This document shows, in pieces, positions 1 to 54,200 of a stretch of DNA of 64,000 nucleotides. The notes beneath the pieces are model-generated. The model did no database searches. It was not told the DNA's origin and saw nothing but the letters and a program-made list of their open reading frames with translations. Within the stretch, counting starts at the first letter, position 1; each line of letters begins with the position of its first letter. The position numbers were made by a program, and so were the translations under genes. The DNA is from Chiloscyllium plagiosum (taxonomy: Eukaryota): the NCBI RefSeq assembly GCF_004010195.1, contig NC_057713.1:99132449-99196448 (forward strand). The letters run 5' to 3'.

Positions 1-160
1 CTCCACCCTGGAGGCAACCTGCCTCTATTCCTGATGAAGGGCTTTTGCCTGAAACATCGATTTTCCTGCTCCTCGGATGCTGCCTGACCTGCTGTGCTTT
101 TCCGGCACCACTCTGATCTAAACTCTGGTTTCCAGCATCTGCAGTCCTCACTTTTGCCTA
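1..160 (+). mobile_element. Penelope-like element 3' terminal fragment with minimal hammerhead motif
   Basis: CTGATGA-agggcttttgcct-GAAAC at 31-55, followed by the terminus shared with 15963-16094 and 14850-15064. Confidence 0.7.
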
Positions 161-2609
161 ATCTTCTAATTGCATACAAATTCTCCAGGAATCTAAACTT
201 CCCATCCATTCCATACTTGATGTATTTACAAACATACAAAATAGGAGTGAGAGTGGATCATTGGACTTCTTGAGCCTGTTCCTGCAATCAGTAAGATCAT
301 GGCTGATCGTTTTGTGTTTTGAATTCCCTATGCACATTTACCTCTGCCCCTTATTTCCTGGCCAATAAGAATCTATCCATCTGTGTCTTAAAGATATTCG
401 ATTACTGTCTCTACTACCTATTGCAGATCAATTGTGCGTGTAAAAATAGGGAAATCCTTGTTCGAGAATGAAAGCTAAAATGGTAGAATGAGGTGAATTT
501 TACACAATTTCTTGTCAATGAGATCACATTTCTCTCAACTGCAGCACAATGGAAGACCCTTGATCTGGTAGCTGGTCAGTTAGACGTGGGTTTCAATTGA
601 ATTAACGATTTGACTCTGAGTTTGAAGGGATCAAAGACAATGGACCGAATCTTATGTTTTTTTTTAAACAAAGTCCAAGTTGCATCACTATGGAAAGTAA
701 CTGTGGGTATTCCTCTCCCAGTAGCTTCCAGCCTCCACCTGAATGTGCCAGTGAGCAACCCCACCCCCCAACACCACCAAAACATTCACATTCCCTACCT
801 TGTAGCCTGGCCTGTAAACCCCATAGGCTCCACGCTTCCCAAATCTCCACCAAACCTATCTACCTGTGCATCTCCTTGTGTTTTTCAATCCATTGCCTGA
901 CGTAAGTGACCAATTGAGGGCTGGTCATTCATTTATTAGCCATGGCCTACTTCCTTGATTAGGGACATGAACAGACAGTCCTAGTCAGACCTAGACTGTA
1001 CCTATACATCTGAGTGCATCAGCACTACCATTCAATCACCACCCCATCCCTAACCAATTACCAGATTGACTGCCACATTACCAACAGACTGATGGTGACT
1101 CTGTCTTTTGTGACTGTGTGCTAATTGGTAAGGCATGGCAATGATTCTGTGGTCATGCACGAAGGTGCTAGGTGAGTGAGCATGAGAGAGCAAGCAGACA
1201 GCCCAGTCTGTGAACTGGGATGCCTGTGCCTGTGTGTACAATGTCCCCACTGCAGCCTTGCAGTGCTAATTTCTGGCTCGCCCTGCAATGCAAGTTTGCA
1301 CTTTCAGAGTACACTGCCACTTCATTGAAGAAGTGCCAGGATGAGCGTGGGGCTGACAGATGCTGAATGCCAGTGCTTGTTTATGAGGTGTGCGTGTGAC
1401 TTGTGTTCTGGGCAGTATTTTAGCTGTAGCTCACCTGGAGCATGCGCTGATCTGAATCCATCAGGTGCACAGTCCTGTTTTCTTGGTGAGGTTTCCCAAC
1501 ATTAAGCTTGTTTGATAAGGTGGGAGCCTTGATATTAATGAGATGGGTTGTACCATTAATAAGCTGTATATCAAGTTTTAATCTCCATTAATTACCATCT
1601 CATCGCTACCCAGAGAATCTCGCTATGCTGCTTGTGAAAAGTATAAAAGATGGTGTGAGTTGCTTTTGATGTTGATACGGGTCTCACTATACTTGTCAGC
1701 TGATTCTGTGTCTCAGCTCATCATAGTTCACGTCACTTAGATCCCCAATAAATTCTGCGTTGTGATTTCTGGAGCTTTCTCTGATCCCAGGAAATAATGG
1801 GGGGCAGTTGGGAGGGGGAGGAAAGGGGATGGGGAGCGTTGGTCTTTGTGGGGGAGGAAGGGGGATTGGGGGGTGGCGTGGGTGTGGGATGTTCATTAAA
1901 GGGTTGTGTGGACTTGATGGGCTGAATGGCCTGCTTCCACACTGTAGGGATTTTCACTCTTGCCTGTGAATAAACCAGCCCAGATTGCAGCAGCACAGAC
2001 TGAAAAGGGACAGTATAAAGCTTGGCTTTAATAACCAAGACTGACTGAGGAGGCCCTTCAAGGCCGTCTGTGGTCTAAGCTGGAGGGTAAGTGCCTTCAT
2101 CCACCCAGGCTGCAGCCACTGGAGAAACATTGTATAGCAATGCCAAGAGAGGCAAAGGGACACGAGGCCTGGCACGAAGGGAATGGACATGGGATTGGCT
2201 TTTTAAATTCATAGTCACATTTATTAATCGAGATTGGAATATGCTTTTTATTCTCTTTCCAACAATGCCTTTTTAAAACAAAAATTGACAAGTAATCAGG
2301 GAACAGTGAAGTGAGTGCAGAAGTGTGATTCAAGATAACATATGGATAATCACTCATTAATACTTCTTCTCGAGCAGGGGACGAGCTGAGAATAGTTCAT
2401 AGGTCAGTGCACCATCGAGGGCTGAAGGGCCTGTTCTGCGCTGTATTGTTCTATGCTCTATATGTTCTATGAAAAGGGCTGTAAACATCTTAGCTAGTCT
2501 TGCTTCCTGTTGTTCCTCCTGATTGTGCAACTGTCTCTCAGCTTCTTGCACGATAGCTCTTTTTCTCATAGTGATCAGATTGTACAAAATGCAACATACC
2601 GTTCTAAAT

Positions 2610-2731
2610 CTGATGAAGGAACGGCGCTCTGAAAGCTGGTGTGCTTCCACTTAAACCTGTTGGACTATAACCTGGTGTTGTGTGATATTTAACTTTGTAC
2701 ACCCCTATCCAACACCGACATCTCCAAATCA
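2610..2731 (+). mobile_element. PLE terminal fragment (second family) starting at its hammerhead core
   Basis: CTGATGA...GAAAGCT; same family as 33490-33673; flanked by the 10-bp direct repeat ttctaaatct (2602-2611, 2732-2741). Confidence 0.65.
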
Positions 2732-4357
2732 TTCTAAATCTTGATACCTATTTAACAGAATACACAGAGGGCTTATTCAGAGAGACCTAGGCAATGAGCT
2801 ATTGCTTAAGGATGGCAGTTGTGAGCTGTTCATGGTAGCAACTTGGCTCTCACTTCAGGTCTGCTGCACATATTATGTGAATTGAAGATGCAAGCTTGAG
2901 TGTCTAAGCTTTATCAGCCATTAGCTACCCTTTGACTTGCTGTAATCTGTTAACTAACTGATAGAGGATTGCAGCAGAATGAATGAATCCTAGTTTTCTG
3001 TAGATTGAGGAATTAGAATCCCTTTGGTCCATTAAAGTGACCATGAGACCCCAGCAAGCCAATGTGTGTGGTCACTCGCACCTTGCATTGAGAAATCTGC
3101 CCAAGTCCTCATGCTAAATTTGTTTTTTGGCTTAGGAAAGCATAAATGGGATGGAGCTTACTTTTCAATGTGGAGAAACCGTGATCTCCATGTGCTGCAA
3201 AATGTGATTACTCTCCAACAGCACCCTGAAAGGAGCCGGATGCATTAAAATTGAGCTGCAGTCACCTTAACAACCACAAGTATTGCTATCCTAACTCTAC
3301 TTTGAGATTGTGGGTGCAACAATTTGTAAATTTAAGTCCTCACACCTATAGTGAAGCAAGCCGGTTTTGAGCCTATTTCCTCATTAAAGGCAAGGTAAGG
3401 GAATTCCATTTTAAAGACCCTGGGGAGATAATTACCTACTGCTGAGAACTACTGCTCTTGACTGTTGGCTTTGTTCATGGATCAGTTCAATTACAAGAGG
3501 AAGAGCTATCCTACATTTTTGGATGCACTTTGTTTCAATTGAACTTTTTAAAGGAACAAAATCTACTTCGGCACCAGCCAGACCATGTCCTGTAAAATAT
3601 TGAAACTTCAGTTAAGTGTCACAAAGCTCCAAACATGTATGTCAGCAACCAGAATAAGTAATCCATCAACTAATCACGAATAGTTGTAACATTGCTGGTC
3701 AGCAGATGCTCCTTCGTGCTACTGAATATTATTCCGTCATACAAAGTAAAGACAGGATTTAAACTGGAGCTTGTAAAGTGCAGTGCTGGCTTTAGATCAG
3801 GGTGGCTTCACATGCTTCTAGCAGTATGTTTGTGGGTATTCCTTAATCAATTAGGTTCTGGCACATTTGAAGCTGCATTGCATTTTTTAAACATAAAGTG
3901 CAAGAGAGTCCAAGTTTTCCTACATAATCTTCCAGCCATCTGCTTGACCTCGAGGGTCTAACCTTTATCAGCCATTAGCAACCCTTTGACTTGCTGCAAT
4001 GTGTTAACTAACTGACAGAAGATTGCAACAGAATGAAGGAATCCTAGTTGCCTGTTTAATTCATCTGGCTTCTTTCACGCTGCTGTTGGAGAGTAACCAC
4101 ATTTTGCTGTACATGGAGATCACTGTTGCTTCACATTGAAGAGGAAGCTCCATCCCATTTATGGTTCCTAATGCCAAAGGTACTTGACCTCATTCAAGTC
4201 TCTCACGCGGATTGTATTTTCCTTGGTGGTCTTAATTAGCTTCTCAATTTCTGGATCAACCTATCCACATTTTGCATGAAAGAAGTACAGGAAGGGAGTG
4301 TGGATGTTGCAGGCATCTGTTATCCATCCCCAAATACTTTTGAACAAGTAGACTGCT

Positions 4358-7177
4358 AAATTAAACTGCATTTAATTCAATGCAAGAGCCCGAACAGGAA
4401 GCCACACGAACTCAGGGCATGGTTAGGAACATGGGACTGGAATATCATAACAATTCCAGAAACACTGCTCAGGGATGGACAGGACTGGCAGCTTAATGTT
4501 TCTGGATACAAATGCGATAAGGAGGAGAGAAAGGGGTGGGGGGGGGCAAGAGAGGAGGGGGAGTACCATTTTTGATAAGGAATAGCATTACTGCTGTACC
4601 TAGGGAGGATATTCCTGGGAATATTTCCAGGGAAGTTATTTGGATGGAACTGTGAAATAAGAAAGGGATGATAACCTTATTGAGATTGTATTATAGACCC
4701 CCTAATAGTTAACGGGAAATTGAGAAACAAATTTGTAAGGAGATTTCAGTTAATTGTAAGAACAATAGGGTGGTTGTGGTAGGGGATTTAACTTTTCACA
4801 CATATAGACTGGAACTGCCACAGCGTTAAGGGTTTAGCTGGAGAGTATTTAAGTGTGTCCAAGAAAATTTTCTGATTATTATGTGGATATTCCTACTAGA
4901 GAAGGAGCAAAACCTGACTGACCCTTGGGAAGTAAGGCAGGGCAGGTGACTAAGGTGTTAGTGGGGCAGCACTTTGGGGCCAGTGACCATAATTCTATTA
5001 GTTTTAAAATAATGATGGAAAAGGATAGACCAGATCTAAAAGTTGAAGTTCTAGATTGGAGGAAAGCCAATTTTGTCGGTATTAGACAAGAACTTTCAAA
5101 AGCTGATTGAGGTAGATGTCCGCAGGTAAAGGGACGGCTGGAAAATGGGAAGCCTTCAGAAATGAGATAACAAGAATCCAGAGAAAGTATATTCCTGTTT
5201 GGGTGAAAGGAAAGTCTGGTAGGTGTAGGGAATGCTGGATGACAGAGAAATTGAGGTTTTGGTGAAGAAAAAGCAGGAAGTATATGTCGGGTATAGACAG
5301 GATATATCGAGTGAATCCTTAGAGTACAAAGGCAGTAGGAGTATACTTAAGAGGGAAATCAGGAGGGCAAAAAGGGAACATAGCTTTGGCAAATAGGGTT
5401 AAGGAGAATCCAAAGGGTTTTTATAAATACATTTAAGGACAAAAGGGTAACCAGGGAGAGAATAGGGCCCCTCAAGGGTCAGCAAGGCAGCCCTTTGCTT
5501 GGAGGAGATACGAAATGAGTATTTTTCATCAGTGTTTACAGTGGAATAGGACAGGGAAGATATAGAATGTGGGGATATTGATGGTGACATCTTGAAAAAT
5601 GTCCATATTACAGAGGAGGAAGTGCTGGATGTCTTGAAACAGATAAAGGTGGATGTGTACCCTAGAACTCTGTGGGAAGCTAGAGAAGTGATTGCTGGGC
5701 CCTTTGCTTCATATTTGAATCATCAACTGTCACGGGTGAGGTGCCGGAAAACTGGAGGTTGGGTAATGTGGTGCCACTATTTAAGAAAGGTGGTAAGGAA
5801 AAGCCAGGGAACTATAGCCTGACATTGGTGGTGGGCAAATTGTTGGAGGGAATCCTGAGGGACAGGATGTACAAGTATTTGGAAAGGAAAGGACTGATTG
5901 GGATTGTCAGAGTGGCTTTGTGCATGGGAAATCATGTCTCACGAACTTGATTGAGTTTTTTTGAAGAAGAAATAAAGAGGATTGAGGGCAGAGCAGTGGA
6001 TGTGATCTATATGGACTTCAGTAAGACGTTTGACACGGTTCTCCATGGGACACTGGTTAGCAAGGTTAGATCTCGTGGAATACAAGAAGACCTAGCAATT
6101 TGGATACAGAACTGGCTCGAAGGTAGAAGACAGAGTATTGTGGTGGAGGGTTGCTTTTCAGAGTATAGGCCTGTGATCAGTGGAGTGCCACAAGGATCGG
6201 TGCTGGGAGCTCTAATCATCATTTACATAAATGATTTGGATGTGAACATAGGAGGTATGGTTAGTAAGTTTGCAGATGACACCAAAATTGGAGGCGTAGT
6301 GGACAGCGAAGAGGGTTACCTCAGAGTACAATGAGATCTTGATCAGATGGGCCAATGGGCTGAGGAATGGCAGATGGAGTTAAATTTGGATAAATGTGAG
6401 CTGCTGCACTTTGGAAAGGCAAATCTTAGCAGGACTTGTACACTTAGTGGTAAGGCCCTAGGGAGTGTTTCTGAACAAAGAGACATTGGAGTGCAGGTTC
6501 ATAGTTTCTTGAAAGTGGCCTTGCAGGTAGATAGGATAGTGAAGAAGGCGATTGGTATGCTTTCCTTTGGTCAGGGTATTGACTGTAGGAGTTGGGAGGT
6601 CATGTTGCGGCTGTACAGGACATTGGTTAGACCACTTTTGGAATATTGCGTGCTATTCTGGTCTCCTTTCTATCGGGAAGATGTTGTGAAACTTGAAAGG
6701 GTTCAGAAAAGATTTACACGGATGTTGCCAGGGTTTGAGTTAAAGGGAGAGGTTGAATAGGCTGGGGCTGTTTTCCCTGGAGCATCGGAGGCTGAGGGGT
6801 GACTTTATCAAGGTTTATAAGATAATGAGGGGCATGAAGAGGATAAATAGACAAAGTCTTTTCCTTGGAGTGGAGGAGTCCAGAACCAGAGGGCATAGGT
6901 TTAGAGTGAGAGGGGAAAGGTATAACAGAGACCTAAAGGGCAACGTTTCACGCAGAAGGTGGTATGTGTATCAATTGAGCTGCCAGAGGATGTGGAGGAG
7001 GCTGGTGTAACTATAGCATTTAAAAGGCATCTGGATGAGTATATGAATAGAAAAGTCTTGGAGGCATGTGGGCCAAGTGCTGGCAAATGGGACTAGAATA
7101 GTTTAGAATAACTGGTTGGCATGGAGAAGTTGGACCAAAGGGTCTGTTTCTGTGCTGTACAACTCTGAGACTCTATA
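4358..7177 (+). mobile_element. CR1-clade (HER1-like) LINE ORF2, endonuclease plus RT, degraded
   Basis: Motifs YRPP, SDHNSI, YMDFSK.FD, GVPQGSVLG, FADDTK and RPLLEYC, plus the CR1 3' tail; many stops and frameshifts. Confidence 0.93.
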
Positions 7178-9069
7178 ACTGAGTGGCTTATTTAGCCATT
7201 TCAGGAGGCAGTTAAAAGTCAACTACATTGCTATGGGTCTGGAGTAGTATGTAGGCCACATCAGGGCAGGAAGACAAATTTCCTTTCCTAAAGGACATTA
7301 ATGAACAATTGATAGTCATTAGCACCATTACAGAGATTAACTTCTGTTCCAACTTTATTAAATACTGTAAATTTTACCAATTGCTGTGGTAGTATTTGAT
7401 TGTCTCCCAGAGCACTAACTTGAGCCTTGATTAATTCAGTGACATCGTATGGCACCACCAGCCCGAGTAATAAAATTACCCAGGCAGTTCAAATTGATAG
7501 TTTTCCAGCCCGTTACAACATTGTCGTGGAGAGATCAATACCGGGGGGGGGGGGCATAGATTTCAAATAAAGGGCAGGAGGTTTAGATGGGATTTGAGGA
7601 AGAATTTTTTCCGCCTAGAGAATGTTGGAAGTCATGACCTGGAAAAGGTGTTAGCGGTGGGAACTGTCAGAACATTTCAGTAGTATTTAGATGATAACCT
7701 AAAGTGCCACAGCAAACAAGGCTATGGGTCAAGTGCTGGAAAATGAGATCAGAATGTATAGGTGGTTGGTTATCTGGCACAGGCATGATGAATTGAAAGG
7801 CCCCTTTCTTACTATGCTGTAAAACTGACTATATAAATGCTGAAAGCACCAGGATTTTAAGAACCTCCACCCCCCCCCCCCAAAAAAAGCACCCATGGAT
7901 CCTCATTAAGAAAAACTTTACTTCCAGTGATTTAACTTCATGCTCGCTTACAATCTTTAAAATACTGGGAATACTTCACATGCATTTAAACAGGTTAAAA
8001 TACTGTATTTGAATGCCTGCTTTAAGTAGTTCTAATTGTTTTAAGTTCCAAAGGCTACTTTAAGCTGAAAGACGCGTTTACTTTTCTCTTTAACTCATCT
8101 TTACAGTTGGCAGTTATATGATAATCGATCGTAACGTTTTGAAAAGTTAACTGCCGGTGAAACTGGCACAAGTCGCTTAGCGGCAGGAAGCATTGGCAAA
8201 GGTAGGAAAGGGGTATTGATTCGCAAGTGCCAAATGCATTTAATTTTATTTTGCTCTACCTGCTGCTGTCTGAATGTTCGTTTGCTGGTGCTCTGCTAGT
8301 TCGATTAGTTGCTGTGCCAACTTCTCCAATTAATATGTTTGATACCTATTGCCCTTGATGTGCTGGATGTGTCACAAGTTCCTTAATTGACTATTTGATT
8401 TTGTAGTTAATTGGTTGCTGTCCTGCTGCTCGTTGACTTGTGTTTTGCAGTGCCCTGTGGTCATCGTAACTTAATTAATTTCAGACCTGCCTACTTTTGC
8501 CCATTTAGTCAGTGGTTGGAGTAGCACAAATATTGTTCACTCACTGCTGTCTACTTAGTAGCTGTCTGCAGTGCTAATTGGCTTGTTTTAGTTGTCCATT
8601 TATAACGGAGTTTGTGTAAATTGCTTTGCTTCCTGTGCTTCTGGTTCTTTGCTCCGATTTGAATGTTGACAGAAAGTGGAAGAATCTAGTTCTAATTTTC
8701 AGTTCTGTTTTTTTTTAGTAAGCTGTTCTGTTGGAGTGATCTGACGACATGTTTTTGGGAAGATTGAGATGCAACTTTCCTACTTTGACACCAACAGAAA
8801 TACATGGAAAAAGGAAAATAATGTGTACAAATCCTATATAAATTTAACATACCTTAATTTGATCTTTACATTGTTGGATTTTTCTGACTTGTAACTTGCA
8901 ATGTACTACTTACCAATTTAAGCAGTTCAACTTTCTTAAATATCCTGAAAACAACTTTTGGAGTTCCTGCAATAAGTAACTTGTGCTTTGTATAATGTAT
9001 GCATTCAGTATTCCATTTGGGAGTATTTTTTAGTCATAAGCATAACTGGGTGGCCATCTTTGAATCATC

Positions 9070-9950: not shown

Positions 9951-10214
9951 AATGTGTACTACATGATAGTAAAAAGCACATCTTCAAAACCACAGTAAGC
10001 AGCACCGATCTGCTGAAATGCTGAAAAGTCCCCAGGTTGCAAATGGGTTCCTTTTTGGAGTCAGTTTACAAGACTAACAGTGGAAAGCAGCTGCTCATAA
10101 GTGCTGGAAATGTTTTTATATTGGGTCTTTAAATTTTAAAACCCTGTTTATGATTGTGTTCATCACTACAAGCATTTGTAAATCAGGGATCCTCTGTAGA
10201 TGTATATTTCCTGA

Positions 10215-10392
10215 AATATAGTGCTGGAGAAACTCTGGCAGGATCAGTGGAGAAAGACAAAGTTAACAATCCAATATCAGACTTGAAACATTTAGTTCAG
10301 TTTCTGTTTCTACAGATATTGCTCAACTTGCTGAGTTTCTCTAGCACTTTGTTTTTATTTCATATCTCCAACATCTGTAGTACTTAGCTTTT
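10215..10392. mobile_element. Degenerate inverted (hairpin) PLE terminus
   Basis: Inverted arms agtgctggagaaactc and gagtttctctagcact; same terminus as 37432-37560. Confidence 0.5.
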
Positions 10393-11011
10393 GTTTAGTT
10401 GTATATTTTCTGTTTGTTAAGCATTGTAATGGTTTTGAACAGCACTCTTGATAATTAGTGGATATTCTTTAACAATATAAAGTAATAAATTAATTTAAGC
10501 TAAATGGAGAAATATAAAAGTAGACCGAAATAATTTTCTTCATAGTTGGATTATTTCAGAATGTAGCGTTATGTATGTCTGCTACCTGCCTACTAACCCA
10601 GTGTCCTACCAGTGTGCAAAGTACTGAATTAAACCGGAAGGATCACTGTTCAAACATATTATGATTCTCCATGGAAGGTGGGATTTGAACTGGCCCAGTA
10701 GTAGAAACCACCATTGTGCTAGGAGACCACTCTTTTATCTCTGTGTTGTAGCAATATAATAAATCATAAACACTAATGCCTGCTTCTGTTACTTGAATGG
10801 ACAAGGTTATTAAGCCCCACTGCCTCAAGTGCTACTGTGCCATGTTCTTCCCAGCTTTTTCCACCATATGATGCTAAAGAAGACCATACAAATTAATCTG
10901 TCAGCGTTTATTTTCACCACCTTATCCATGTTATTTCAGTAAAATCTCTTTCCTATCTTTTCTATCCTCTTGACATTTTTCCCTAAGTGAAGAGGCCCAG
11001 ACTTAATAATG

Positions 11012-11982: not shown

Positions 11983-12129
11983 GTTCACCTAGACAGTGAA
12001 AACAGGATAGTCAGCTCTACCCTTTTCCTTGGTGTGAGCCGTAGCTCACTGGCTAACTCTAATGTGTCAAATCACAAAGCCTGTGAAATGGAACACTGTC
12101 CTGGGCAATTAACCACATAATCTATACTG

Positions 12130-12562: not shown

Positions 12563-30496
<17,934 letters not shown>

Positions 30497-30568: not shown

Positions 30569-30574
30569 AATAAA
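30569..30574 (+). promoter_or_regulatory. Candidate TOPAZ1 polyadenylation signal AATAAA
   Basis: First AATAAA, about 70 nt after the TOPAZ1 stop. Confidence 0.5.
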
Positions 30575-33136: not shown

Positions 33137-33362
33137 TTACCATTTCCAGTCCCAAGGCACACACAAGTCACCATCCTGTAACACTGTATAGAAATGGGAG
33201 ATACACAGGTGCATCCCTTGTAACTCTCCTATGTGTCCTTCAAGGAGTCTTTGACAGCACTTCACCATTTGTTGGCTGGACACACTGGGCTCCTTATACA
33301 GTCTCTTGAGTCCAAATTGTTCTATACAATCTCTGATCAGTGTCTTCTGTTTCAGTTCCAAT
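33137..33362 (-). CDS. TCAIM: TCAIM last coding exon (...DGDLCVPWDWKW*)
   Basis: Within ORF 33137..33388; acceptor gactag; TAA stop. Confidence 0.93.
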
Positions 33363-36300
33363 CTAGTCGGATAAAGATAAAAATCCATTAATTTCTGGAG
33401 TGAAACAGTGGATTTGCTGGAGAAGTAATAGAGAGTTTACATTTAATTAGCTGTCAAGTTCAAGGGACGAAGAGATAACACTGAGTTGTGATGTAGAAGA
33501 GCTGGTGTTAGACTGGGGTGTACAAAGTTAAAAATCACACAACACCAGGTTATAGTCCAACAGGTTTATTTGGAAGCACTAGCTGTCAACTACCTGATGA
33601 AGGAGCAGCGCTTGGAAAGCTAGTGCTTCCAAACAAACCTGTTGGACTATAACCTGGTGTTGTGTGATTTTTAACTGAGTTGTTGGTCATCAATCTGTTG
33701 TTGCACACTAATGGCTTTTCATCCTCAGCCTTGCTGTTATTTTGAAGAGTTTGCTGGTTTTATGCATTATTTACCAATTAAACTCACCACAGATTTAGGG
33801 CTGATAAGTATCAGTGTAACTATGTATCTATGTAACTTTTGGTGGGCAGAAAAAGAGCAAATTCAATTTAATGAAGTGTGACTTGGTACATTTAGGAAGA
33901 TTTAACAAGGCAAAATAATACACAATTAATCAGAAAATACTGAAAGGTGAAAAAGACCTCTGACTGTAGGTCTATAAATTACTGAAGATAGCAGGACTGA
34001 TCAATAAGTAGGTTCGAAATCTTGCTCTTTATTAGCCAAAGTAGAGGTGATGCTAGAATTGTATAAATCTTTAGTTAGGCCACAAGGACAATTTGCAATT
34101 TTGATCACCTCATTATAGAAAGGATGTAATTGCCCTAGAGAGGGTGCAGATGAGATTTACATAACGGAAAATTGTAGCTGTAAACAAGATTTTGATAGGT
34201 AGGGTTGTTCTCCTAGCAGAAGAGTAGGCTTGGAGGAGAGCTGATTGAGACAAACAAATTGTGAGGGTCCTGGATAGAGCGGCTCAACAGGGCTATTTAC
34301 CTCTGAATTCAAAATGATTGGTAGAAAGATTACAGGTGAGAACAATGAGGCAGAAATCCTCAATTCATATAAAAGGTGTCTGGATATGCAGCTCAATTGC
34401 AGAAACCTGAAGGCTGTAGCCTGATTGCAGCAAAGTGAGATCAGGTTGTGTAGCTAGATTCTCAGCTGGTGCAGCCACATGATCCAAGTGGCTGTTTCTG
34501 TGCCCCACCTTTTCTTGAGTAACAATGTAATAATTAATGCAATGTAAATACATTGCTCTGGTTCAGAACAAGAAGAATTTAAACAATAATATAGAAGAAA
34601 AGATGCGCAGATGCTGGAAACCTGAAATAAAATAAAAAAAAATACTGGATATACTTTGTGAATGAGGGGGCAGTGAACAATTTAAATTGTTTAGGTTCAA
34701 ACTTTCAGATGAAGTAATGCCAGTGATTTTGCAAGTATAAACAGTTTTAGTTTTACTTTTAACTTTATTTTTTCCTTTGTCTCAATTCACCCTTTCTCCT
34801 CCTTCCCTTTATTTCTGGATCTGATTTCACTGTAATTCACCTAATTTCCTTTTTTTTGTCTGTTTCTTTCAGTCCTTAAATCCTCATGTTTAGAGTTCCC
34901 AGATGCCCCTACACTATTATCAAAAGTTTATAAAGAAAGACTTAATTAATGGGGTCTCATTAAGATTTGCCCTATCATCAGAATCTTTCCTTATTAAACT
35001 AAAGAAGTATGACTAATAATGGTTTTATTACACCATGATTTTACCATCTCCTTGCTGTAGCCAGTAAATATCTAAATCACATCTGCATTAACTGTTGATG
35101 TTAATGAGCGATTAGGCATCTTGGAATTCAGAAATACTGACACTCCAATCCCTTTGAGTTGATCCAGTCAATGGTTCTTTATGCACATTGGGAAACTGAA
35201 GTGATTTTATTTTAACAATTCTTTAATGAATTACCCATATATGCAAAAACCATATATGAAAGTGTGTGAATGTCTGATCCTCTTCAAGAGTGCGACTTCA
35301 ATTGTCACCCTCTCATCTATAACATGTGCTCAGTTAGAATCTGTTACTTACTCTTCCTCTTTTCTCAAGTAGGTCCTGGCTCTTTGTGAATGAGCCTGAA
35401 TAAACCGTTGTAAGGTAGTGGGGTCACATGTTACAGGTATGCTCAGTTGACCTGCTTGAAGGAGGCTAGGATCAGAAGAGTCACTGAAATAAAAGAACAG
35501 CATCCTGTTAACATGAGCAGTGTTGAAATGATGGAGTAGCAAGTTGTTAAAAGTCTTTACATTTCCTTCCATAAACGGAGGACATCCCAAAATGCTTCTC
35601 ACTCAAATTATCCATTTCTCCTCAAGTACAGCCACCAATTGCCGGCAAGAAACCTGTGATGTTGATTGAGAGACAAATATTGGCCACACCGAAAAGAACT
35701 CTCCTGTTCAATGAGGTGGGATCTATGACCAACTCCCACCTCTCCCTTTCCTCCCTCTCCCCTCCCCTTAAATGTTCAACTGACTGACTTCCATTGAATT
35801 TATGAAAAGGTCTTTGGATAGAAATAAAGGTTAGTACCATGGTTAATTTTTCGCTGGATTGTGAATCAAACCTGGGACTTTCCATCTAGGGGATAAACAC
35901 TATGTTGGTCCTGGCAATTACAAATTGAGTCATTTGGAGTAGTCAAATGCAAAAACAATGAGAATTACCAGTTTTCCTGCCAGATGTTTCTCCCAGCACC
36001 AGTCAAGACATTGATTGCATAAACTTATCTGGAGTTAAACAGAACTCGAGTAACAGTGATTCAAGAAAGCAGCTCATCAGTGCCTTCTCAAGGTCAGCTC
36101 GGGATAGGCAAGATTCTGGCTTAGCCAGTGACACCCACATCCCATGAGTGAATGAAGAAAATTGCTCAGGAAATGATTGAATGATGCATATGACTGGCCA
36201 TATCATCAAATCCCACCCACCTTACCATCCTTTCCTCAATTGGAGAGGTGAGTACAAACACAAAGGTGGCCATCAAAACAGCTGCCTACACATGCACAAA

Positions 36301-39300
36301 TGGGCCCAGTCACATCAGTTACTGGTGGCAGATGTCCCTAAGCCAGAACAAATCTCAGCACGAATAGCCAGCATCACTATGTTTCGAGGATAATAATGTC
36401 ACACTTGCTGCACTTAAGTGTGGTTTCACTTGCAACTTTAGCAATTACTCACTTTTGTAGAATTATTTGCAGTCCTTTTAGACTTCGTGGGTGAAACAGA
36501 GGTTGAATAACTATCAAATTCTGATAGAAGGTCTTTAACATTCTGTAATAATCTTCGAGCATAACTGTTGGTTGCAGATCCTCATCATAAATTAATTCAA
36601 CGTCTCCCAGAAGGTAGCTGGTCCTCTCTTTCAACACAGAAAGATGGCTGTGAAGATCACAGTAGATGGGCAACCTCTCCAACAGCTTCAAGTAATAACA
36701 AATTAAATATTTACTGAACCAATACTTGATCATTCACAAATTTAAACATTTTACAGATGCCTTTGTTACCTTCAGACTGGACTCGTCCAAAACGTTTTCT
36801 GCCCAGCTTCCCACCTTTCACTCTCTGCCAAATCTACATTATACAAAACTGTGTCAGTTTGTCCCAGTTATCCATCACCCACTGTACTCTGCATTGCCAG
36901 ACTGGGAGCCAGTGTATCTTGCTCCCAGTCTGGCAATGCAATGATGTTAAAAATTATATTCCCCCTCTTCCACCCTACAAGCCCCCTGCGCCCCCCCCCC
37001 CCCCAAGATCTTGGTGCTCCTCCAATTTGGAATTCCTGAGCATCCCTTATTTCTTTCAATCCCATACTTAAGGCTGTACCCTCAGCTGCCTGGCCCCTAA
37101 ATTGAGGGATTTCCTCCCTAAACTTTGACCAGATAGAACAAAGTAAATATTTCTGAAAATAAGAAACATGAAATGCACACATTTTGCTATAATGTTGTCT
37201 TTACTGTTGGTTTCACTTACTTTTGCCCAGTGATGATGGACATCCACAGTTCCCAACATAATCTGCCCTGCAGCATTAATCCCGGAGTTATCAGCAAAGA
37301 TTAAAGTACGTCCTGTAAAGGAAACAGGCACAGCCATGGAGGGGGATGAAAGATTTGCATCAAGATTCACAGCGTAGAAGATACATCACACAGTTCCACT
37401 TTAAATTAGTCACAGCCTTATCTGGAATAAATAAAAGCAAAGCACTGCAGATGCTTGAGATCTGAAATAAAAACAAAGTGCTGGAGAAACTCAGCAGTTC
37501 AGGCAGCATCTATGGAGACAGAAACAGAGCTAACATTTTGAGTCAGATGACTTCTTCAAACCAAAAGCAGCTGGAAAATGGTGGTGTTATGCTGTTGATG
37601 AAGGGGAAAGAGTGAGTAAGTGAAACGGATGGTGAGAGTGGCCAGTATGAAATTGATAATGGTAGGAGGGGAAGGATAAAAGTGCAGAATAGGTTTTAAT
37701 AGAAGATGTTACTTGCAGAAAATAAGTCAGCTCTATTATGAGCAAACCAGACACTGGGGGAAGAGAAGGTGTAATCACAATGGAGGAAATTGTTCATGAT
37801 CTTAAGTTGTTGAACTCAATGTTTACTCCTAAAGATGGTAAAGTGCCTCAGTATACAATGTGGGGCTGTTCTTCCAGCAAGTGTTGAGTTTGGTTTGAGC
37901 ATTAGAGCAGATCTGGGAATGTTAGCATGAGAGCAAAATGGTGTATTAAAATGGCAAGCATCAGGAAGGCTGAAGTCTTTCCTACAGATAGAACTGTGGT
38001 GTTCCATTGAGCAGTCACCCAGCATGCGTTTGGTCTTGCCAATTTATAGGAGAGCACATTGTGACACAAAATACAGCACAGTAGGCTGAACAATGTACAG
38101 GTAAATTGCTGCATCACCTGGAATGCATGTTTGGAACCTTGGAGAGTGAGAGGGAGATGAAAGAGTAAGTAACACACCTGTGCTTACAAGGGAAGGTGTC
38201 ATGGAAGTACTGTGGAGGGAATGATCCTTGCAAAATGCTGACAGTGGAGGAGAGGTGAAGATGTGCTTGGTAGTGGCATTCTACTGGAGGTGGCAGAAAC
38301 GGTGTTGGAAGATGGAAAATCCTCAGTTGAAGAAGATGGTGACGTCGAAAGCATTCCTGTGGAGGAAAGGTGGCATTATTGGAAATGATGTGACAGAGTT
38401 GAAGAAACTGGAGAATGGAATAGAATCCTTACGTGAAGTGGGGTACTGTATGAGGACATGTATTCAAGATAACTGTAAGTATGTAATGTTGTGTCGCCAT
38501 AGTCTTGCCAGACTATAGGGGCTGCTCTCACTGGTGGTGATTTAACCTGAGGGCTGTCAAACCTCAGGCAAGGGAAGAAGTTGAGAAGGAGAGTCCTTCG
38601 TGGTAATCTCAAACCAGTGATGGGAATTGAACCCATGCTATTGACATCACACTGTTCTGTAATCCAACAATCCAGCCAACTGAGCTAAACTGATTCCCAG
38701 GTATGAAATGGATATTAGGGGAATAGCCTATCTTCAGAAATAGAAACAGAGAAGTCAAAGAAGGGAAAGGAGACTCAGATGCACTTGGGGTAGGTGATAG
38801 AAGGATTCTATTAGAAGATCCCTTACAAGAAGTTTATAAGGGTATTGGGTGGATTTAATTGAAAAACTTGGAGCAGAGGGAGGGTAGAATTTGGAATAAA
38901 CAGAAATCACAAATGAAATATTAGCCTGCTTATCTTGTATCTGAACATGCTGGCATAACCATTTTCAAGTTTTGATTTCACATTCCAATGCTTGCAAGTA
39001 TTTATGAAAAGACAGACCTTTGATATTGTGCAAATCTGGAGAATTCTGCTGGATGAAACGAGTGAGGCTGTGTAATTGGCTACATCGATGAGCTACTCCC
39101 CAACTTCTCTGCCACCTAGACCAAGAGCAAAATTAAAATTATATTGCTGGAGATGGAACCAAATGTACTAATGAGCAGTGAGGAATATTCCTAAACATGG
39201 TAGAAAGCAATGTGAAAAATAAAACTTTAATATTCTTCTATATTCCAGAACACACTGGATTCCAGGACAGTTCCAGCAGATTGGAAAACTGCTAATGTGA

Positions 39301-42300: not shown

Positions 42301-45300
42301 AATGGACAGACTCTGGGAATGAGGGGGAATGAGAGGGAAGAATGGGACTAATTAGATTGCTGTTGCGAAGAGCTAACTCAGGCATTGTGGATCGGATGAC
42401 CTCTTATTGCATTGAGATTTCTAAAAGATTTATTTTGCAAACCTAATCCCTTAGTTTACAAGAACGGAGTGGTTAACAAATTGCCTTTCATGATTTCAGG
42501 ATATCCCAAAATACTTCATGCTCCTACTCTTGAAATGTAGAAACGCTAGTCAACTTGCTCATAGTAAGATCCCACGAATAGCAATTTAATAAGGACTGGA
42601 TAACCTGATTATTTGATGCTGATTGAGGTTTAATACCTCATTCAAACGATTTGCATCCGTAACACTGGTTTTGCAACTGGAAATCTTCTTTCAGTGGAAT
42701 TCCATAGCATATCAGAAATATGCTTTTTCTGATATATGATTTAGACTTAAATATAAAGGTGATCAAAAGATAATTTGATAGTGTCATTGATAGTGTGGAA
42801 GGAAGCTTTTAAACTGTAGCATTTCAATGGACTGTCAAGTGGTTAAAACAAAGTGGCAAGTAGAATTCAATCTTGAGGCATTCAAGGTAATGAATTTGTG
42901 GATGATGGTATACATGGTAAATGGTAAAACATTGAGAAGTGTAGAGGAATAGAGAGACCTCGGAGTGTATTTCTACAGATCCCTGAAGGTAACAGAACAG
43001 GCACATAGGATAGTAGACATAGGGGATAGTTTTCTTTACAAGTCAGTGCAGAAAATATAACAGCAGGGAATTCATACAGGAACAGATAAAGCATTGGTTA
43101 GACCAAAGCTGGAATACTGTGTACGATACTGATCACCTCATTCTAGGAAGGATGTGATCATACCAGAGAGGCAGAGGAGATTTACAATTTCACTGGAAAA
43201 AATTAGCCATGTGGGAAGATTAGTTAAGGCTTGTTTTTAAAATGGAGGATGCTGTGGCAGATCAGTTGGTGTGTTTAAAATTATGAAGGGCCTTGTTGGA
43301 GTAGATAGAAAGGACCGATTTCACTTATCAGTGATATAAATAACTAGGGGGCAAAGATTTCAAGTGATTGGCAGAAGGATTAAAGGGGAGTTGAGGATTT
43401 TTTACTCAGAGGATAGTGCACATCTACAGTCACTGGCTATAAAAGTATAGCATAGGCAGAAACCCTCATCTGAATTATAAACTATGCATTATATATGTAA
43501 AGGACAATTATAAATTATAAAGGGTAAACATACACATCTGAAGTACCACAATGTCAACAGCTACAAACATCAGCCTGAGAAGTTGATTAGGTCTTTTAGG
43601 ACCAGCACAGGCACAGTCTTCTTCAGTGCTGTACATTTTTACGATTCTATAAATGGTGCATTCCCTCAGTACTGTTCCTCTGATAGTGTTGTACTTCTAC
43701 AGTATTGCCCCTCTGACAATGCAGCACTTCCATTGTACTGCCCCTTTGATAATATTGTACTGTGACAGTACTGGCCCTCTGACAGTGCAGTTTTCCCTTT
43801 ATAATGCCCCTCTGACAGTACATACCATCCTCAGCACTGTGGTCTGACATGGTCCCTCTGACACTGCAGTGCTCCCTCAGTACTGACCTACAGACATTGC
43901 AGTGCTCCCTCAATACTGACCTACAGACACTGCAGTGCTCCCTCAGTACTGACCTACAGACATTGCAGTGCTCCCTCAATACTGACCTACAGACACTGCA
44001 GTGTTCCCTCAGTCCTGACCTACAGACACTGCAGTGTTCCCTCAGTCCTGACCCGAGTGAAGATTTGAACTCATGGCCATCTTAGTCGTGCTAAGCACTA
44101 AGCCACAGCTGACATTTGAATGATTAGCCAAATATTAATGATACAATTATCTGGAACTGGGATAGACCAGAGCAACTATTACAGCAATTAACACAACCTT
44201 AACTGAGGTAGGCAGTAACAGTTCTTGTACCCAAGTGCAGGTTCCATATGGACAGTGCAATCCAACTCTTCCTCTGGGTCTCTGTAGCCAGTGACAGTGT
44301 AGTAGGTCTTATCCCACCGGATAGGTCTGCCAAATGGAATGGTCGCAGTCTGCTGAGGCAGGCCCTTGTCAATCTGTGTATCTTGCACATGATCCGTGGA
44401 TAAACTGCAGGATTTCAAGATCGTTACTACCACACTCAGGAGGTCCTTATTCTGTAGCGTGAAAGTAACTGGTCGAAACCCTGAAACAAATAGTTTTGTT
44501 TTAACATTAACTAAATTTGTAGACATAAAGTGAATGTAATTAAACATAGAAAATAAGAACAGGAGAAAGCCATTTGGCCCTTCGAGCCTGATCCACCATT
44601 CAATACGATCATGACTCATCATCCTGTTCAGTACCTGTTATAGCTTTTGCTCCAGATCCACTGACCCATGTAGGCTGAAGAACTATAACTCCTTCTTAAA
44701 AACATTCAATGTTTTGCCCTCAACAGTGTCCTGTACCACTAGACATGCTCACCACTTTGAGTGAAGACATTTCTCCCTATCTCAGTCCTAAATAGCATAA
44801 CCCGCATCCTTAAACTGTGACTCCTGGATCTCAGTTCTCAGGAACACCCTTCCTGCATTTACCCTGTCTAGTCTTGTTAGAATTTTATAGGATTCCATGA
44901 ATTCCCCTCTCATTCTGAACTTCAGTGAATATAGTCCCAACTCTCTTCATATGGTCAGTCATGTCATCCCAGAATCAGTCTGGCAAATTGCATTACATTT
45001 TCTCTGTAGCCAGAACAGTCTTCTTCAGAGAAGGAAGCCAAAACTGCACACAACATTCCAGGTGTGGTCTTACCATGGCCCTGTACAATTGCAGCAAGAC
45101 ATCCCTGCTCCTGAACTCAAATCCTCTTGCTATGAAGGCAGACATATCATTTGCCTTCTTCACCGCCAGCTAGACCTACACGCTTAGATTCAATGACTGG
45201 CACAACAGACAAATTACTGGACGTAAAGCACAGGCAGAGGTTATTCAGCCTACCATCATCAGAAATACTTCTCTGTCCCACATTCTTTTCCCAAAGCTCT

Positions 45301-48300
45301 GTAACTTTTCTTTCCATTCAAACGTTTATCCAATTTCCTTTTGAAAGTTGCTATTGTATCTGCTTCCACTGCCTGTTGCGGCAGTGTCTACCAGACTTCA
45401 CTACTGACATGCAAAGAGAAGTGCGACATTCTTACAGTTTGCAATTTCTAAAATGGTTTCAAATTAACATACCCAAGAATGGTAGAATAAGGCTTACAAC
45501 CACCTGCATTTATGTATGTGGAGTCTTTGACATTGCAGAGTGTCAAAAATGCATAAGAGTCTTATCAAACAAAATTTGACACTGAGACACATGACCTGGG
45601 GCGGTATGGTAGCTCAGTGGTTAGCATTGCTGCCTCACAGCGCCAGGGACCCAGATTCGATCCATTCTTGGCGACTATGTGGAGTTTGCACATTCTCCCC
45701 GAGTCTGCGTGGGTTTCCTCCGGGTACTCTGGTTTCCTCCCACAAAACGTGCAGGTCAGGTGGACTGGCCGTGGGAAATGCAGGGTTATGGGTACAGGTA
45801 GGATGCTCTTTGGAGAGTCAGAGTGGACTTTATGGATCAAGTGGTCTGTTTCCATACTGTAGGGAATCTATGAAATATTAGGACAGGTGTGAGTGTCTGA
45901 AAAGAGAGCAGAGTGGAAAGGAAAGGAAATCCAGTACTTGGGACCTTGGCAACTAACAGCACAGCCGCCATTAGCGGGAGTGGGGTGAAATAAAAGTAGA
46001 GCTGTAGAAGAGGTCAGAACTAAAGAAGTACAGTTATCTCACAGGGTTGAAGTGCTGGAGAAAATTACAGAATTGGGATGGGCGAGACCATGGAGAGATT
46101 TGAAAGCAATGATGAAAATATTAAAATGGAAGCTTTGCTGGACCAGGAGCTAATATACGTCCATGAGGACACTATTCCTGCAAAACACTTCTCACCCTGT
46201 CACTGTGCCAACTCAGGAAAGCATTTGCAAATCACTGCACTATTGTTATTGCTCCACCATGAGCCTGTTGAACATTTATAATCCCTGCATCAGAAGAATG
46301 TTAATTGGTGGATAAATATTGGCCAGGATATTGGGGAGACCTCATTTGCACCTATCCAAAATAATGCCTTGGAACCTTATACGTAAAGCTGAATAGAGAA
46401 ATGAGGTTGTGGTTTAACATTTTATTGAAAGACACCATTGGACAGTGTAGCCCTCCCTAAGTACTGTGCTTGGAATGTCTACCTAAATTTCTATGCTCAA
46501 GCCCTAGAGTTGGACTTGAATCCAGAACATTGTGACTCAGAGATGATGGTGCTAGTCACTAAAATCATAAGCTTGGATTCAATTCAGTTCGATTCCAGCC
46601 CTCGTCGGTTTGGATTTTGCACATTCTCCCCATATCTGCATGACTTTTTCTGGGTGCTCCAGTTTCCTCCCATAGTTCAAAGATGGGCAAGTTAGGTGGA
46701 CTGGCTTTGTTGAATTGCGCGTAGTGTCCAGGGATGTGCAGACTAGGTGGGTTAGCCATGGGAAATGCTGGGTCACAAAGATAGGGTAGAGGGGTGGTTC
46801 TGGGTGGGATGCTCTTTGGAGGCCTGGTCCAGGCTGAATGGCCTGTCTCCACATTGTAGGAATTCTATGATTCATGGCCTTATTTACTGTACTTTGTTAA
46901 ACAAGTAAGGCTTGGCTCCAAGGACACTGGGACTGCACAACTGCATAATTAAAGGAATGGTCTGAACATCAATACTCTGCAGAGAATATCTGCCTTAAAT
47001 CCTGAATGAAACCAGTTAAGTCAGAACAAGAGTAAGAATAGTTCGTAGAGCTCCCAATAAAACATTGCCCCCACCTGAAGTATTTACATGGTGCTGGGGT
47101 GCATTTGGATCACTACTTGTGTCTCTGATGTAGAATGTGAGCTTTGTAGGTTGAAGGGTTTTACGCCCTGGTCTCTGCATGCACTCCAAGTAGCTATTCA
47201 ACTGCTTCAGGGAATTTTCATTCACTTCCTGCAAAAGCAAAACAACACAGAGACTTTCTTCCAGCTGAAAGTAAGGTGCATCGGATTCTTAGAATAATAC
47301 AGCACAGAATTGGGTCCATCGAGTCTGCATCAGTTCATTCAGTCTGAGTTAAAGGATTCTTTCAGTGGGGCAGTGGCCATTGGTACAGATACTTAAGTTT
47401 TTCCAAACATTGGTATATACTACTGTAGTTTTTAACCATATCTTTACCTAACCAAATCTGGGCTGAAGCATTTAAGGAATGAAACCTCTTACCTCCAAAT
47501 GGAATAATGACCATCAGTACCAATCTTTCTTTACACTCAAATATCTTAGAGTGACAGAATATCATGGATTGACTCTGACAATTGTGTTGCACATTGAACA
47601 TAAGGACAGGAGGAAGCCATTCAGCCTCTTGATTCTGCTCTATCATTCAACGAGGTCATAGCTGATCTGTGCCCTAATTGTATTTACCCACCTGGTCCCA
47701 CACTACTTAAAAAGATTGGCTAATAAAATCTATCAATCACCAAATCAAAAATTAACAATTGACTGAACATTAATTGCCGTATTTAGAATAGAGCTCCAAA
47801 CTGCTACCACTCTTTGTGCGTAGGACTGTTTCCTAATTTCACTCCTGAAAAATCTGGCTCCAATTTAGACTTGGTTCACCGTCAAGCACAGAAATTGGGT
47901 GCTCATCTCAAAAATCTGTTTGCAACATGGAACCAATTCTATGTTGCCATACATTTATGTAGCAGTAGTGTCAGTACAAATGAGATGGATTATAACTGGC
48001 AGTGCAATAAGAACAATTTAAGAGCACACATAATTAGTAACAGACCAGTGTAAAGACATTCAGAATGCCTCAAAAAGGCAGAGATGGAACCTGCCTGTGT
48101 AGCTTAAAGAAACATTTGAAACAAGGACACTCCACCTGGAACAGCGACAGCATTTGACACATTGTGCCTGTGTCAGCTCTCTGGAAAAGTTATCAATTGC
48201 TTCTATGCTGCCCCTGTTCTTTCCTCTTCAATTATTTATCGAATTCTCATTTGAAGGTCACAATTGAATTTGCTTTCACCGTTCCCTCAAACAACACATT

Positions 48301-50870: not shown

Positions 50871-50975
50871 CCGCGCGGATCATCGGGGCCGCAGGCCTCG
50901 GCCGAGCTCCCTGCAAGTCCCAGCTCCAGGCGGTCACCAGGACAACGGGGGCACACTCGTGTAATCCATCCCAGA

Positions 50976-51430
50976 GAGGAGCAATCACTCCCGGATAGAC
51001 CGATCATTAGGAAGGAGCAATCACTCCCGGATAGACCGATCATCAGGAAGGAGCAATCACTCCCGGATAGACCGATCACTAGGCAGGAGCAATCAATCCC
51101 GGATAGACCGATAATTAGGAAGGAGCAATCACTCCCGGATAGACCGATCACTAGGCAGGAGCAATCACTCCCGGATAGACCGATCACTAGGCAGGAGCAA
51201 TCATGGATAGACCGATCACTAGGAAGGAGCAATCACTCCCGGATAGACCGATCACTAGGCAGAAGCAATTACTCCCGGATAGCCCGATCACTACGAAGGA
51301 GCAATCACCAGGGCGGAGTAATCACTCCAGATAGACCGATCACCAGGGCGGAGTAATCACTCCCGATAGACCGATCACCAGGGAAGAGCAATGATTCCAG
51401 ATAAACCGATCGTCAGGGATGGGCAATCCA
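50976..51430. repeat. 36-bp CpG-containing minisatellite (aggagcaatcactcccggatagaccgatcactagg[a/c])n
   Basis: About 12 units; gives the 12-aa periodicity seen in ORFs 50823..51356 and 50801..51232. Confidence 0.92.
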
Positions 51431-52247
51431 TTCCGAAGGATATCATGTTCATTCCTTTCTAATTGTCCAACGTAAAGTCTTGATTTAGATTCAAGTCCGA
51501 GCATCTTAACCACCGTCTCAGCCCGGGATATGCTGGGTCAAAGGGATCCTTTGACCTGCTCATGTGCTCAAGCTGAGGCCCAACTCATTTCTTCTGCAAA
51601 TTCACGATAAACTCAATTCCCTTGAGCTCCTTACCCTTGTTAATAAAACATGCAATACTGTGTACTGTCCTCTGTATCAAGTCTATGACTAATAGCAATC
51701 CTGACCCCTTTAACGATTTATATATTGTATGGATCCAGACCTCTCTGCACTGCAGCCCATTTAGAGTTGTGCCATTTAGCAGTCTCTCCATGTTCTTCAT
51801 ACTAAAAGGTTAACACTTCACATTTCTCTGCATTGAACTTACTCTGCCGGCTGGAGAGTATGTTGCTGGAAAAGCACAGCAGATCATGCATGTGAGAAAT
51901 GGCTCTCTTCAATAATTTCAGTCTGAGTCAAATTCCAAAGCAGGTATCTATTAAAACATTCTTATAAGAATGGATGACAAGTAGGCACCCCGAGTTATAC
52001 AGTTCAGCTGAGTCTCTCGGTACTCCTCTTTTAGCTTATTGGCTTAGCATGCAAAGCGTTAAACCTTTCATAAGCTACTCACTTCACTCCTCCTCTGTTT
52101 ACTTCTCCCACAACTCTAAGCCTGTCGCCCCTTACCCTTGTTTGTTTCTTGCCTTATTTGGCCTTACACGTGACAAAGTGCAGGTGTTAGCTTGGCTGTT
52201 TTACCACATAGCTTGCATCCCTTTTTGCTGCAAACTGTGTACATGCT

Positions 52248-52388
52248 TGGTAAAAACAATGACTGCAGATGCTGGAAACCAGATTCTGGATTAGTGGTGC
52301 TGGAAGAGCACAGCAGTTCAGGCAGCATCCAATGCTCCTTGGATGCTGCCTGAACTGCTGTGCTCTTCCAGCACCACTAATCCAGAAT
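52248..52388. mobile_element. Hairpin PLE-terminus insertion (hammerhead absent from the loop)
   Basis: About 53-bp perfect inverted arms; 13-bp TSD ctgtgtacatgct (52235-52247, 52389-52401). Confidence 0.8.
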
Positions 52389-54200
52389 CTGTGTACATGC
52401 TCGCTAGCTCAACACTTCTCCCCCACACTGAGCCTTATGACCTGTTTGTGGTTTTGTGTACGTGTTTGCTAACGCAACATTTCGTCCCCTATGGTCCACA
52501 CTGAGCCTTATGACCTCTGATTGTGGTTTCTGCAGCACTGAGCCTTATATTTACACAAAATTTATTTTTTTACAAGCCTCTTGCAGAAGGAACACTTACA
52601 TTTTTCACAAGCATATTCTCCACAGGCAGCATTCGAGGAGCAGGGAGAATTGACCTTTCGGGTCGGAGCCCTTAAATTTACCAGCTGTCTGGCCAGTTGA
52701 CTATGTTATTAATGTTATTATGGTCCAGCACATTAATAGCACAAGTTATTCAAATCACAGAATAGAATCACAGGCTTGATAGACAAATTAGTTGTGTCTT
52801 TTTCTCACATTCAGTCACTGAACACAAGAGACTGTTAAATTTACTAAATTTACTACTAACATAGTTATAAAAGAAAACAAACTGTAGACAAGCCAAGAAC
52901 TGTTTAAGTGATCTCATTAAATATCAAATGTTTAATCATTTCACCCCCAGCAATACATATACAGACTCTCAAACCTCAATGAAGAGTCGCCCCATCTTCA
53001 CACTAAAATTCTTGCTCAGCTGGCATAGCTGTAATTAGTTTCATTCCAGCAAATTTGAGCATTCACAAACCTACTTTCTTTAGTTGATATGTCTCAATAA
53101 ACAAGCTAACTCAGCTCACTTATTACTTAACATGGGTTCCCTAAATTCATGTCTTCAACAGCCTTGTCGGGTATCTTCCTCTGATAACTCCACAGCATTC
53201 TGCTTCCAGAACTTGTAGGGACTTGTCAGGCCTGACTGCTCAAAGTTTAAGAACAACAGCTGTGCTGTTGTGTGACTCTTCTTTCCATAAACCAACCTGC
53301 TTTTGGTCACGTTGTCTGGGTTGAAAAAACACCTTAGTAATTATCTTCCAAGGTGGCAGGCAGCTGGTCATTTAGTTGAAACAAGATGACTTCTTGTAAA
53401 TGTTATTCTGAACTCAATATTCAAAATAACTTCAATCTTTTAAAAAAAGTCTCACCTTCACATAACTAAAAACTAAAATCCATTTTTTCTTCACTTCAAA
53501 GAAAAAGTTCAAATAATTATATGAAGGTTCACAAAATACAATGTCCTTTCAAAGCTCTACACTATGCTCAAAGTTCACAAAGCTTGAAATTTTCATAATC
53601 ACATGCAAACTTTGAAATTGTACCCTATTAAGGTCTTAAACATTAAGATAAACAAAAAAAAAGTAAGGATCCCAACACTTACCTTAGGGAGCTCCAATAC
53701 AAACTTTCCTTTCATCCCCTAAAACATCCACAAACTGCTATTCTTTTAGCTGTCATTCAGCCAAATTCATAAAGCTGACCCTTTAATTCCATAAACTATA
53801 ACTTTACAAGTTGTTAAAAGCACTGTATAAATCCAGTTTCTTTCTCTTCATTGTCTCCACCTTCACTGGATCAACTTGGTTTCTTTGACAGCATCCTGCA
53901 AATCTGCTGCCTCTACCACCGATGAGAATGGCAGACAGATTGAAGCACACCATCCCGACTTCGAACTATATCACTGTTCTTTTGTTGCCGAGTCAAAGTC
54001 CCGGATCTCTCTCCCTAACAGCACTGTTGGTTTAGCAATATCACACTGACTGCAGCAGTTCACTGCGGTACCTTATCACCAATCTTCTCAAGATTAATTA
54101 GGGATTGGCAATAAATGCTGACCTAATCAGCAACACGCACACCCTTGTACGAGAAAATGAGTGAACATAAACACAGCAGGAAATGAATTGAAAACAGTAC

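Follow-up and report, generated by a model that had tools for sequence, protein, structure and literature searches.

The insertion unit of Penelope-like elements (PLEs) is described, in the accessible parts of PMC3846280 and PMC8557442, as an inverted, 5'-truncated copy with a 30-40-bp tail at one end and an 8-10-bp duplication. The minimal hammerhead ribozymes of these elements are characterized by an extra base after A9, a G10.1-C11.1 pair, a palindromic helix III, NUH and a short helix I, and the metazoan ones are mostly single and dispersed, with some opposite-strand pairs 100-700 bp apart, and were read in 2014 as truncated PLEs (available portion of PMC4209133). The PAc protein of the anole Poseidon element was reported to cut and extend both target strands in vitro, with two internal priming sites defining the tail; uncut RNA was the main template, the product length followed the RNA 5' end, and ribozyme mutants left insertion in vitro unchanged (PMC11167929, accessible sections). 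Here, we analyzed a 64,000-nucleotide stretch of the genome of the shark Chiloscyllium plagiosum (NC_057713.1, positions 99,132,449 to 99,196,448; hereafter the window), in which a first-pass annotation had noted dispersed, short, hammerhead-bearing insertions and proposed that they are ribozyme-processed, retrozyme-like mini-elements. Our analysis confirmed this observation and supported its interpretation in part. As elements, the insertions are most likely ordinary PLE end-pieces in the published insertion form.

All eight hammerhead cores reported earlier were found (31+, 2610+, 14969+, 15965+, 17131-, 19553-, 20951+ and 33594+), and the five flanking duplications, 10-14 bp long, were recovered with identical start points. 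The motif is not a product of chance, as a stricter scan requiring a paired helix II found 7 sites, whereas 100 dinucleotide shuffles averaged 0.63 +/- 0.83 and never reached 7. These sites comprise six of the named cores and 28002(-), an isolated match inside a long interspersed nuclear element (LINE); the named cores 17131 and 33594 fail the helix II test. With the loose core pattern, 31 overlapping matches were counted, whereas shuffles contained 12.5 +/- 5.5. A search of the window with Rfam returned no hits at gathering scores, which says little because minimal motifs score under the curated thresholds.

The motifs resemble the minimal type I form, though with many departures: they have the extra base before helix II, and helix I is 0-3 bp long in the 7 cores scored. 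The closing pair is G-C or G-U in 6 of 8 cores. A palindromic helix III, previously taken as part of the recurring core, is present in four of them (2610, 14969, 17131 and 33594) and absent from the other four. Only core 14969 combines all features of the motif, and most departures in the remaining cores are CpG-type changes; the family B solo copy has G at the cut site and no helix I. On folding, the predicted probability of helix II was 0.64-1.0 in the family A solo copy, at most 0.15 in the family B mirror pair and 0.00 in the mirror pair of 14969, whose hairpin is predicted to bury this complete motif. The extra base before helix II, the G10.1-C11.1 pair, the palindromic helix III, the short helix I and the dispersed or opposite-strand arrangement of copies are shared, to a degree that varies among the cores, with the metazoan PLE hammerheads; however, helix I is here only 0-3 bp long, and sharks are not named in the available portion of PMC4209133.

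Self-comparison of the window revealed a mirror-image arrangement that the first-pass annotation did not contain, with five of the eight named insertions being inverted pairs (units of 210, 184, 141 and 1,580 bp, and the old 17022-17229). In all four well-preserved pairs a tail occurs on one outer side only (34, 39, 35 and about 30-35 bases); the two old pairs appear lopsided too, on weak evidence. The two solo copies (120 and 132 bp) bear the tail as in the pairs. Target-site duplications of 10-14 bp flank six young insertions, and five of these are exact, each with a chance of at most 1.1% (random pairs of window positions reach a 10-bp duplication in 1.1% of 990 trials). The arms within a pair are 94.5, 98.3 and 100% identical, as compared with 84-94% to other copies. 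Families A and C share their 3' part, and the sequence that B and D have in common with A or with each other is limited to 7-10 bases; thus, instead of at least four families, there are three unrelated lineages (A/C, B and D). The same insertion form spans 141 to 1,580 bp. Most units do fall within the 120-220 bp noted before, but cores 19553 and 20951 proved to be both ends of one 1,580-bp insertion, and the unit at 52235-52401, listed as hammerhead-bearing, has no hammerhead, its arms starting at +36 and +44, behind the predicted cut. No partial tandem forming direct pseudo-long terminal repeats was found in the window, and such a form is expected at near-full-length copies only.

A miniature inverted-repeat transposable element (MITE) or another DNA transposon was considered and rejected in view of the one-sided tail, the 5'-truncated arms and the variable centres. 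We also rejected an assembly artefact, since mirror joints were seen in raw reads as well as in the contigs of both organisms.

These features correspond to those of endonuclease-bearing PLE insertions in the accessible parts of PMC3846280, PMC8557442 and PMC8969392, namely an inverted truncated copy, a tail at one end, a duplication, a hammerhead in the terminal repeat and, in family D, reverse transcriptase (RT) together with GIY-YIG. In contrast to the insertions published there, those of the window mostly consist of the terminal repeat only (120-210 bp), and their duplications are 10-14 bp long.

The coding link is provided by family D. Its arms meet near 20298/20299, with cores 19553(-) and 20951(+), and the minus arm holds broken RT-thumb and GIY-YIG frames. 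The GIY-YIG match (E = 0.003) is weaker than the Pfam curated cut-off, and the frame is broken and 5'-truncated. The thumb region matches 3 of 170 candidate proteins with E-values of 1e-32 to 3e-41 and 62-71% identity; these are shark proteins (Chiloscyllium, Stegostoma), all with PF26215 and two also with RT PF00078. Judged by its sequence, family D is an endonuclease-bearing PLE insertion, with a putative RT and C-terminal GIY-YIG frame upstream of the terminal repeat. Families A, B and C are probably of PLE origin as well, by analogy of motif type and insertion form. The PLE link drawn earlier is therefore supported, by the PLE-type frame in D and by shared insertion anatomy in A, B and C. 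A TATA-like box lies about 50 bases before the right core (20951) of the family D pair. The left arm (19550-19600) is without about 45 bases, including the TATA-like box, that are present in the right arm (20870-20920).

The positions at which the copies begin were assessed for 13 arms in the eight named insertions. Seven of them start within -9 to +5 of the first base of the core, three at +24 to +44 and three far upstream, and none starts exactly at the predicted cut (+28 or +29). The arms of pair 14836..15073 start at about -3 and +5; in pair 33480..33683 the right arm begins just before core 33594 and the left one at about +24. The genome-wide end profile was obtained by aligning public runs to window positions 1-300, that is, for family A only. 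The aligned material comprised at least 119,109 contigs of run X1 (possibly the source sample), 101,188 contigs of X12 (another organism) and 3,692 raw RNA reads of X21; RNA run X22 gave 0 reads on this interval and hence no test. The counts given below are among the matches listed (for loose ends, 18 of 716 rows; for joints, 15 of 94), those for X1 are lower bounds, and copy number was not derived from summed contig depth.

Plotted in this way against the hammerhead, a check proposed along with the earlier interpretation, the 5' ends of family A are non-random. The largest loose 5' ends listed for X1 are at least 1,752 at position 27, at least 563 at 28 and at least 452 at 29, and those listed for X12 are 1,561 at 27 and 445 at 28. 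Agreement with the consensus is 0.31-0.34 for the loose ends at 27-29, therefore the flanks are mostly unrelated. The pile-up is located 2-4 bases before the core (31) and about 30 bases upstream of the predicted cut (after 58), and it can thus be concluded that the motif was copied uncut. Raw-read depth in X21 rises 18-fold from positions 11-20 to 31-40 and another 2.3-fold up to 81-90. Position 27 is the A of a YYANWYY word, an initiator-like motif, and such words occur at 1.3% of positions. The X21 reads lie on both strands and show no site where many molecules begin or end, in a poly(A) single-cell library, a type that reveals neither cleaved ends nor circular RNA. For positions 14500-16400, no RNA record was listed, which counts neither for nor against any reading. 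A 5' pile-up at the front edge of the motif is not described in the accessible parts of PMC3846280, PMC8557442 and PMC8969392. The PAc work concerns one reptile element in vitro and reports no genomic 5' pile-up in its accessible sections (PMC11167929). A literature search outside repeat databases and subscription papers found no account of these shark stubs or of a 5' pile-up at a hammerhead edge.

Among the 15 joints listed, 11 change strand, and ten of these join an arm start at 26-34 to an arm start at 60-71. No mirror junction is dominant, since even for the best one, 27-64, the counts are low (at least 25 X1 contigs, 18 X12 contigs and 5 of 3,692 reads). The 60-71 junction class may be over-represented because of the poor assembly of tight palindromes. 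The remaining 4 of the 15 listed joints are head-to-tail, leading from 141-155 back to 78-82 within the 3' part and without the motif. In one X12 contig, 148 is connected to 64 by way of a degenerate core. Some X1 and X12 contigs contain the family A 3' part (78-155) repeated head to tail, possibly as seeds of retrozyme-like arrays elsewhere in the genome.

We consider it probable that the units are duplication-flanked solo or mirror copies of the hammerhead-bearing terminal repeat, i.e., dead-on-arrival products of autonomous PLEs that are rebuilt at each insertion. With less assurance, we lean towards the view that the fixed 5' edge represents the 5' end of the RNA, in which case most stubs would have been copied in full, by run-off, from the initial 100-140 bases of a transcript that was not cut. 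The mechanism that would produce solo and mirror copies is modelled on the in vitro work with the anole element, as far as PMC11167929 is accessible. The PLE protein would nick both target strands, and it would prime reverse transcription within the terminal-repeat RNA at two sites, one including the tail and one excluding it. One cDNA would then yield a solo copy, while two cDNAs joined by their 5' ends would yield a mirror pair; a short run-off copy would result if priming took place on the transcript's 5' terminal repeat. The ribozyme would be a passenger that does not define the unit.

Several points weigh against this interpretation. The end profile covers family A, and what is said of families B, C and D draws on their copies in the window. 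None of A, B and C is connected with a coding frame, and no copy of these families in the window reaches one. Part of the pile at 27 stems from the reference, as a subfamily with other upstream sequence breaks there (its letters are visible in the consensus), and contigs with identical upstream sequence collapse. The putative RNA start is placed at the edge on the basis of DNA ends, and an extra G, which would be a sign of a cap, is absent at the 3 young core-edge junctions checked. In Penelope of D. virilis, a 75-base intron ends at the hammerhead and the start lies 46 bases ahead of this intron, according to the available text of PMC2377424. Since this start lies further upstream, before an intron, an RNA start at the motif edge is not a general rule. 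Both family D arms and copy 1-158 extend past the edge; the latter is not a core-starting stub, because its sequence runs past the left end of the window. Finally, 10 of the 11 listed mirror joints have their second arm at 60-71, just behind the predicted cut, and a cut template would give the same. The stubs could be imagined as fossils that preserve the ends of PLE RNA in vivo, where most copies run off at a start before the hammerhead and the partner arms behind the cut were copied from ribozyme-cut RNA. We regard this version as unlikely; if true, it would provide evidence, from the genome, of germ-line cutting by minimal PLE hammerheads, and it would mean that one protein dimer can use cut and uncut template in a single insertion.

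The edge might also be a stop site and not an RNA start, if dead PLE stubs arose from a longer RNA on which reverse transcriptase stalled, or short-homology sealing took place, at the hammerhead. The continued 2.3-fold climb in depth, the spread of ends across and behind the motif, the copies that read through the edge and the 2-3 bases shared at junctions (14966-14968, 2610-2611 and 15960-15962) are all compatible with such an origin. However, a structural stall should occur at the 3' foot of a helix rather than once copying has passed the entire motif, the pile is narrow (27-29), repeated in a second organism and positioned on an initiator-like A, and the depth slope may partly stem from family C copies and alignment edges; we thus give this explanation little credence. 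A similarly low probability is assigned to a non-autonomous solo family resembling short interspersed nuclear elements (SINEs), i.e., a stub with an internal promoter and priming sites, whose transcript, made at its own locus, would be copied again in trans by the PLE protein. Such a family would account for the very high abundance (about 11 insertions in 64 kb, more than 100,000 contigs aligned) and for the nearly fixed length of the two solos. Moreover, Penelope has an internal promoter (PMC2377424), terminal repeats suffice for mobilization in trans (PMC3846280), and non-autonomous PLE partners exist (MRC1), as far as the accessible parts of these sources go. On the other hand, mirror pairs are not copied as units, their junctions being variable, lengths form a continuum up to 1.6 kb under one architecture, and copies that continue upstream have the same end sequence (1-158).

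Closest to the original proposal is an RNA excised by the hammerhead, circularized and reverse transcribed, as in non-LTR (long terminal repeat) retrozymes. The window copies share with these elements their short, non-coding nature, a type I hammerhead, kinship to PLE terminal repeats and the presence of many dispersed monomers, but retrozymes form head-to-tail arrays with canonical hammerheads (helix I of about 6 bp, loop-loop contact) and circular RNAs, while the copies studied here are solo or inverted, with minimal and mostly decayed motifs (available parts of PMC7229834 and 10.64898/2026.07.22.740005). Tandem retrozymes are reported in one chondrichthyan genome (10.64898/2026.07.22.740005, accessible part), the start of the second arm is often found at 60-71, past the predicted cut, and a few head-to-tail joints do occur in the genome (the four listed ones without the motif and the 148-64 contig). 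Nevertheless, none of the 11 tandem-repeat rows in the window holds a hammerhead core, the main 5' end (27-29) lies 30 bases upstream of the cut with 0 of 13 arms starting at it, and the short helix I, the single complete core and the helix II probabilities of the two folded mirror pairs speak against such an origin. In addition, one duplication-flanked unit (52235) lacks the motif altogether, and mirror junctions differ between copies. An origin by excision and circularization is therefore very improbable, and a retrozyme identity is not supported for the window copies, which failed on the three features tested (tandem units, canonical motif and ends at the cut).

The value of the insertions lies in their use as data on matters that the accessible parts of PMC8557442 and PMC11167929 name as open questions, i.e., what the PLE hammerhead does and how integration proceeds in its later steps. 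The very many short copies with a fixed end allow the RNA start, the cutting and the sealing of mirror pairs to be tested. For annotation, such insertions should be filed as PLE terminal-repeat fragments and not as MITEs, SINEs or retrozymes. Their positions in the window are collected in Table 1.

Table 1. Insertions and remnants of PLE origin (family D) or probable PLE origin (families A, B and C) in the window (positions include flanking duplications where present)
Feature	Positions	Strand	Details
Family A copy	1..158	+	core 31, predicted cut after 58; continues off left window edge; bases 1-26 covered by many variant contigs
Family B solo stub	2602..2741	+	120 bp between exact 10-bp duplications 2602/2732; starts at core (overlapping duplication); has tail
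Family C inverted pair, old and degenerate	10201..10408	.	weak evidence; possible 9-bp duplication; newly found
Family A inverted pair	14836..15073	.	unit 14850-15059, 210 bp; exact 14-bp duplication 14836/15060; 34-base tail on left arm only
Family A solo stub	15950..16107	+	132 bp; 13-bp duplication 15950/16095 with one mismatch; has tail; starts 2-4 bases before core 15965
Family C inverted pair, old	17014..17237	.	unit 17022-17229; degenerate core 17131(-); possible 8-bp duplication, chance about 5%
Family D inverted pair	19436..21039	.	unit 19448-21027, 1,580 bp including 273-N gap; 12-bp duplication 19436/21028; tail of about 30-35 bases on left arm only
Family C remnant, old	21590..21690	+	degenerate core; newly found
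Family B inverted pair	33480..33683	.	unit 33490-33673, 184 bp; exact 10-bp duplication 33480/33674; 39-base tail on left arm only
Family C remnant, old	37441..37570	-	degenerate core; newly found
Family A inverted pair	52235..52401	.	unit 52248-52388, 141 bp; exact 13-bp duplication 52235/52389; 35-base tail on left arm only
Family A fragment, degenerate	52623..52673	-	second fragment at 51861-51890

The surroundings of the insertions contain exon matches. Exons with DUF4461 and DUF4460 lie at 33140-47288 (-), in a gene that we take to be TCAIM-like, and the family B mirror pair 33480-33683 sits between its DUF4461 exons. An exon match to a ZIP zinc transporter was found at 57207-57485 (-) with an E-value of 1.4e-19. 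Many LINE pieces, presumably CR1-like, are present at 4380-7180, 11010-11980, 26740-28500, 39490-40090 and 60700-64000, with RT matches at 5951-6331 and 27435-27803, and a repeat near 14226, 40145, 45672 and 46653 is, we assume, SINE-like. At 50977-51418 a tandem array of 36-bp and 35-bp units, behind a GC-rich stretch, holds an open frame of 185 residues without a Pfam match, and a 33-bp minisatellite occupies 43667-44053. A 51-bp imperfect hairpin at 36890-36940 is unrelated to the PLE families. The segment 2900-4180 is a rearranged local duplication, in which about 2905-3000 occurs again in direct orientation near 3960-4050 and 3126-3249 is found inverted at 4055-4178, the copies being 85-87% alike.

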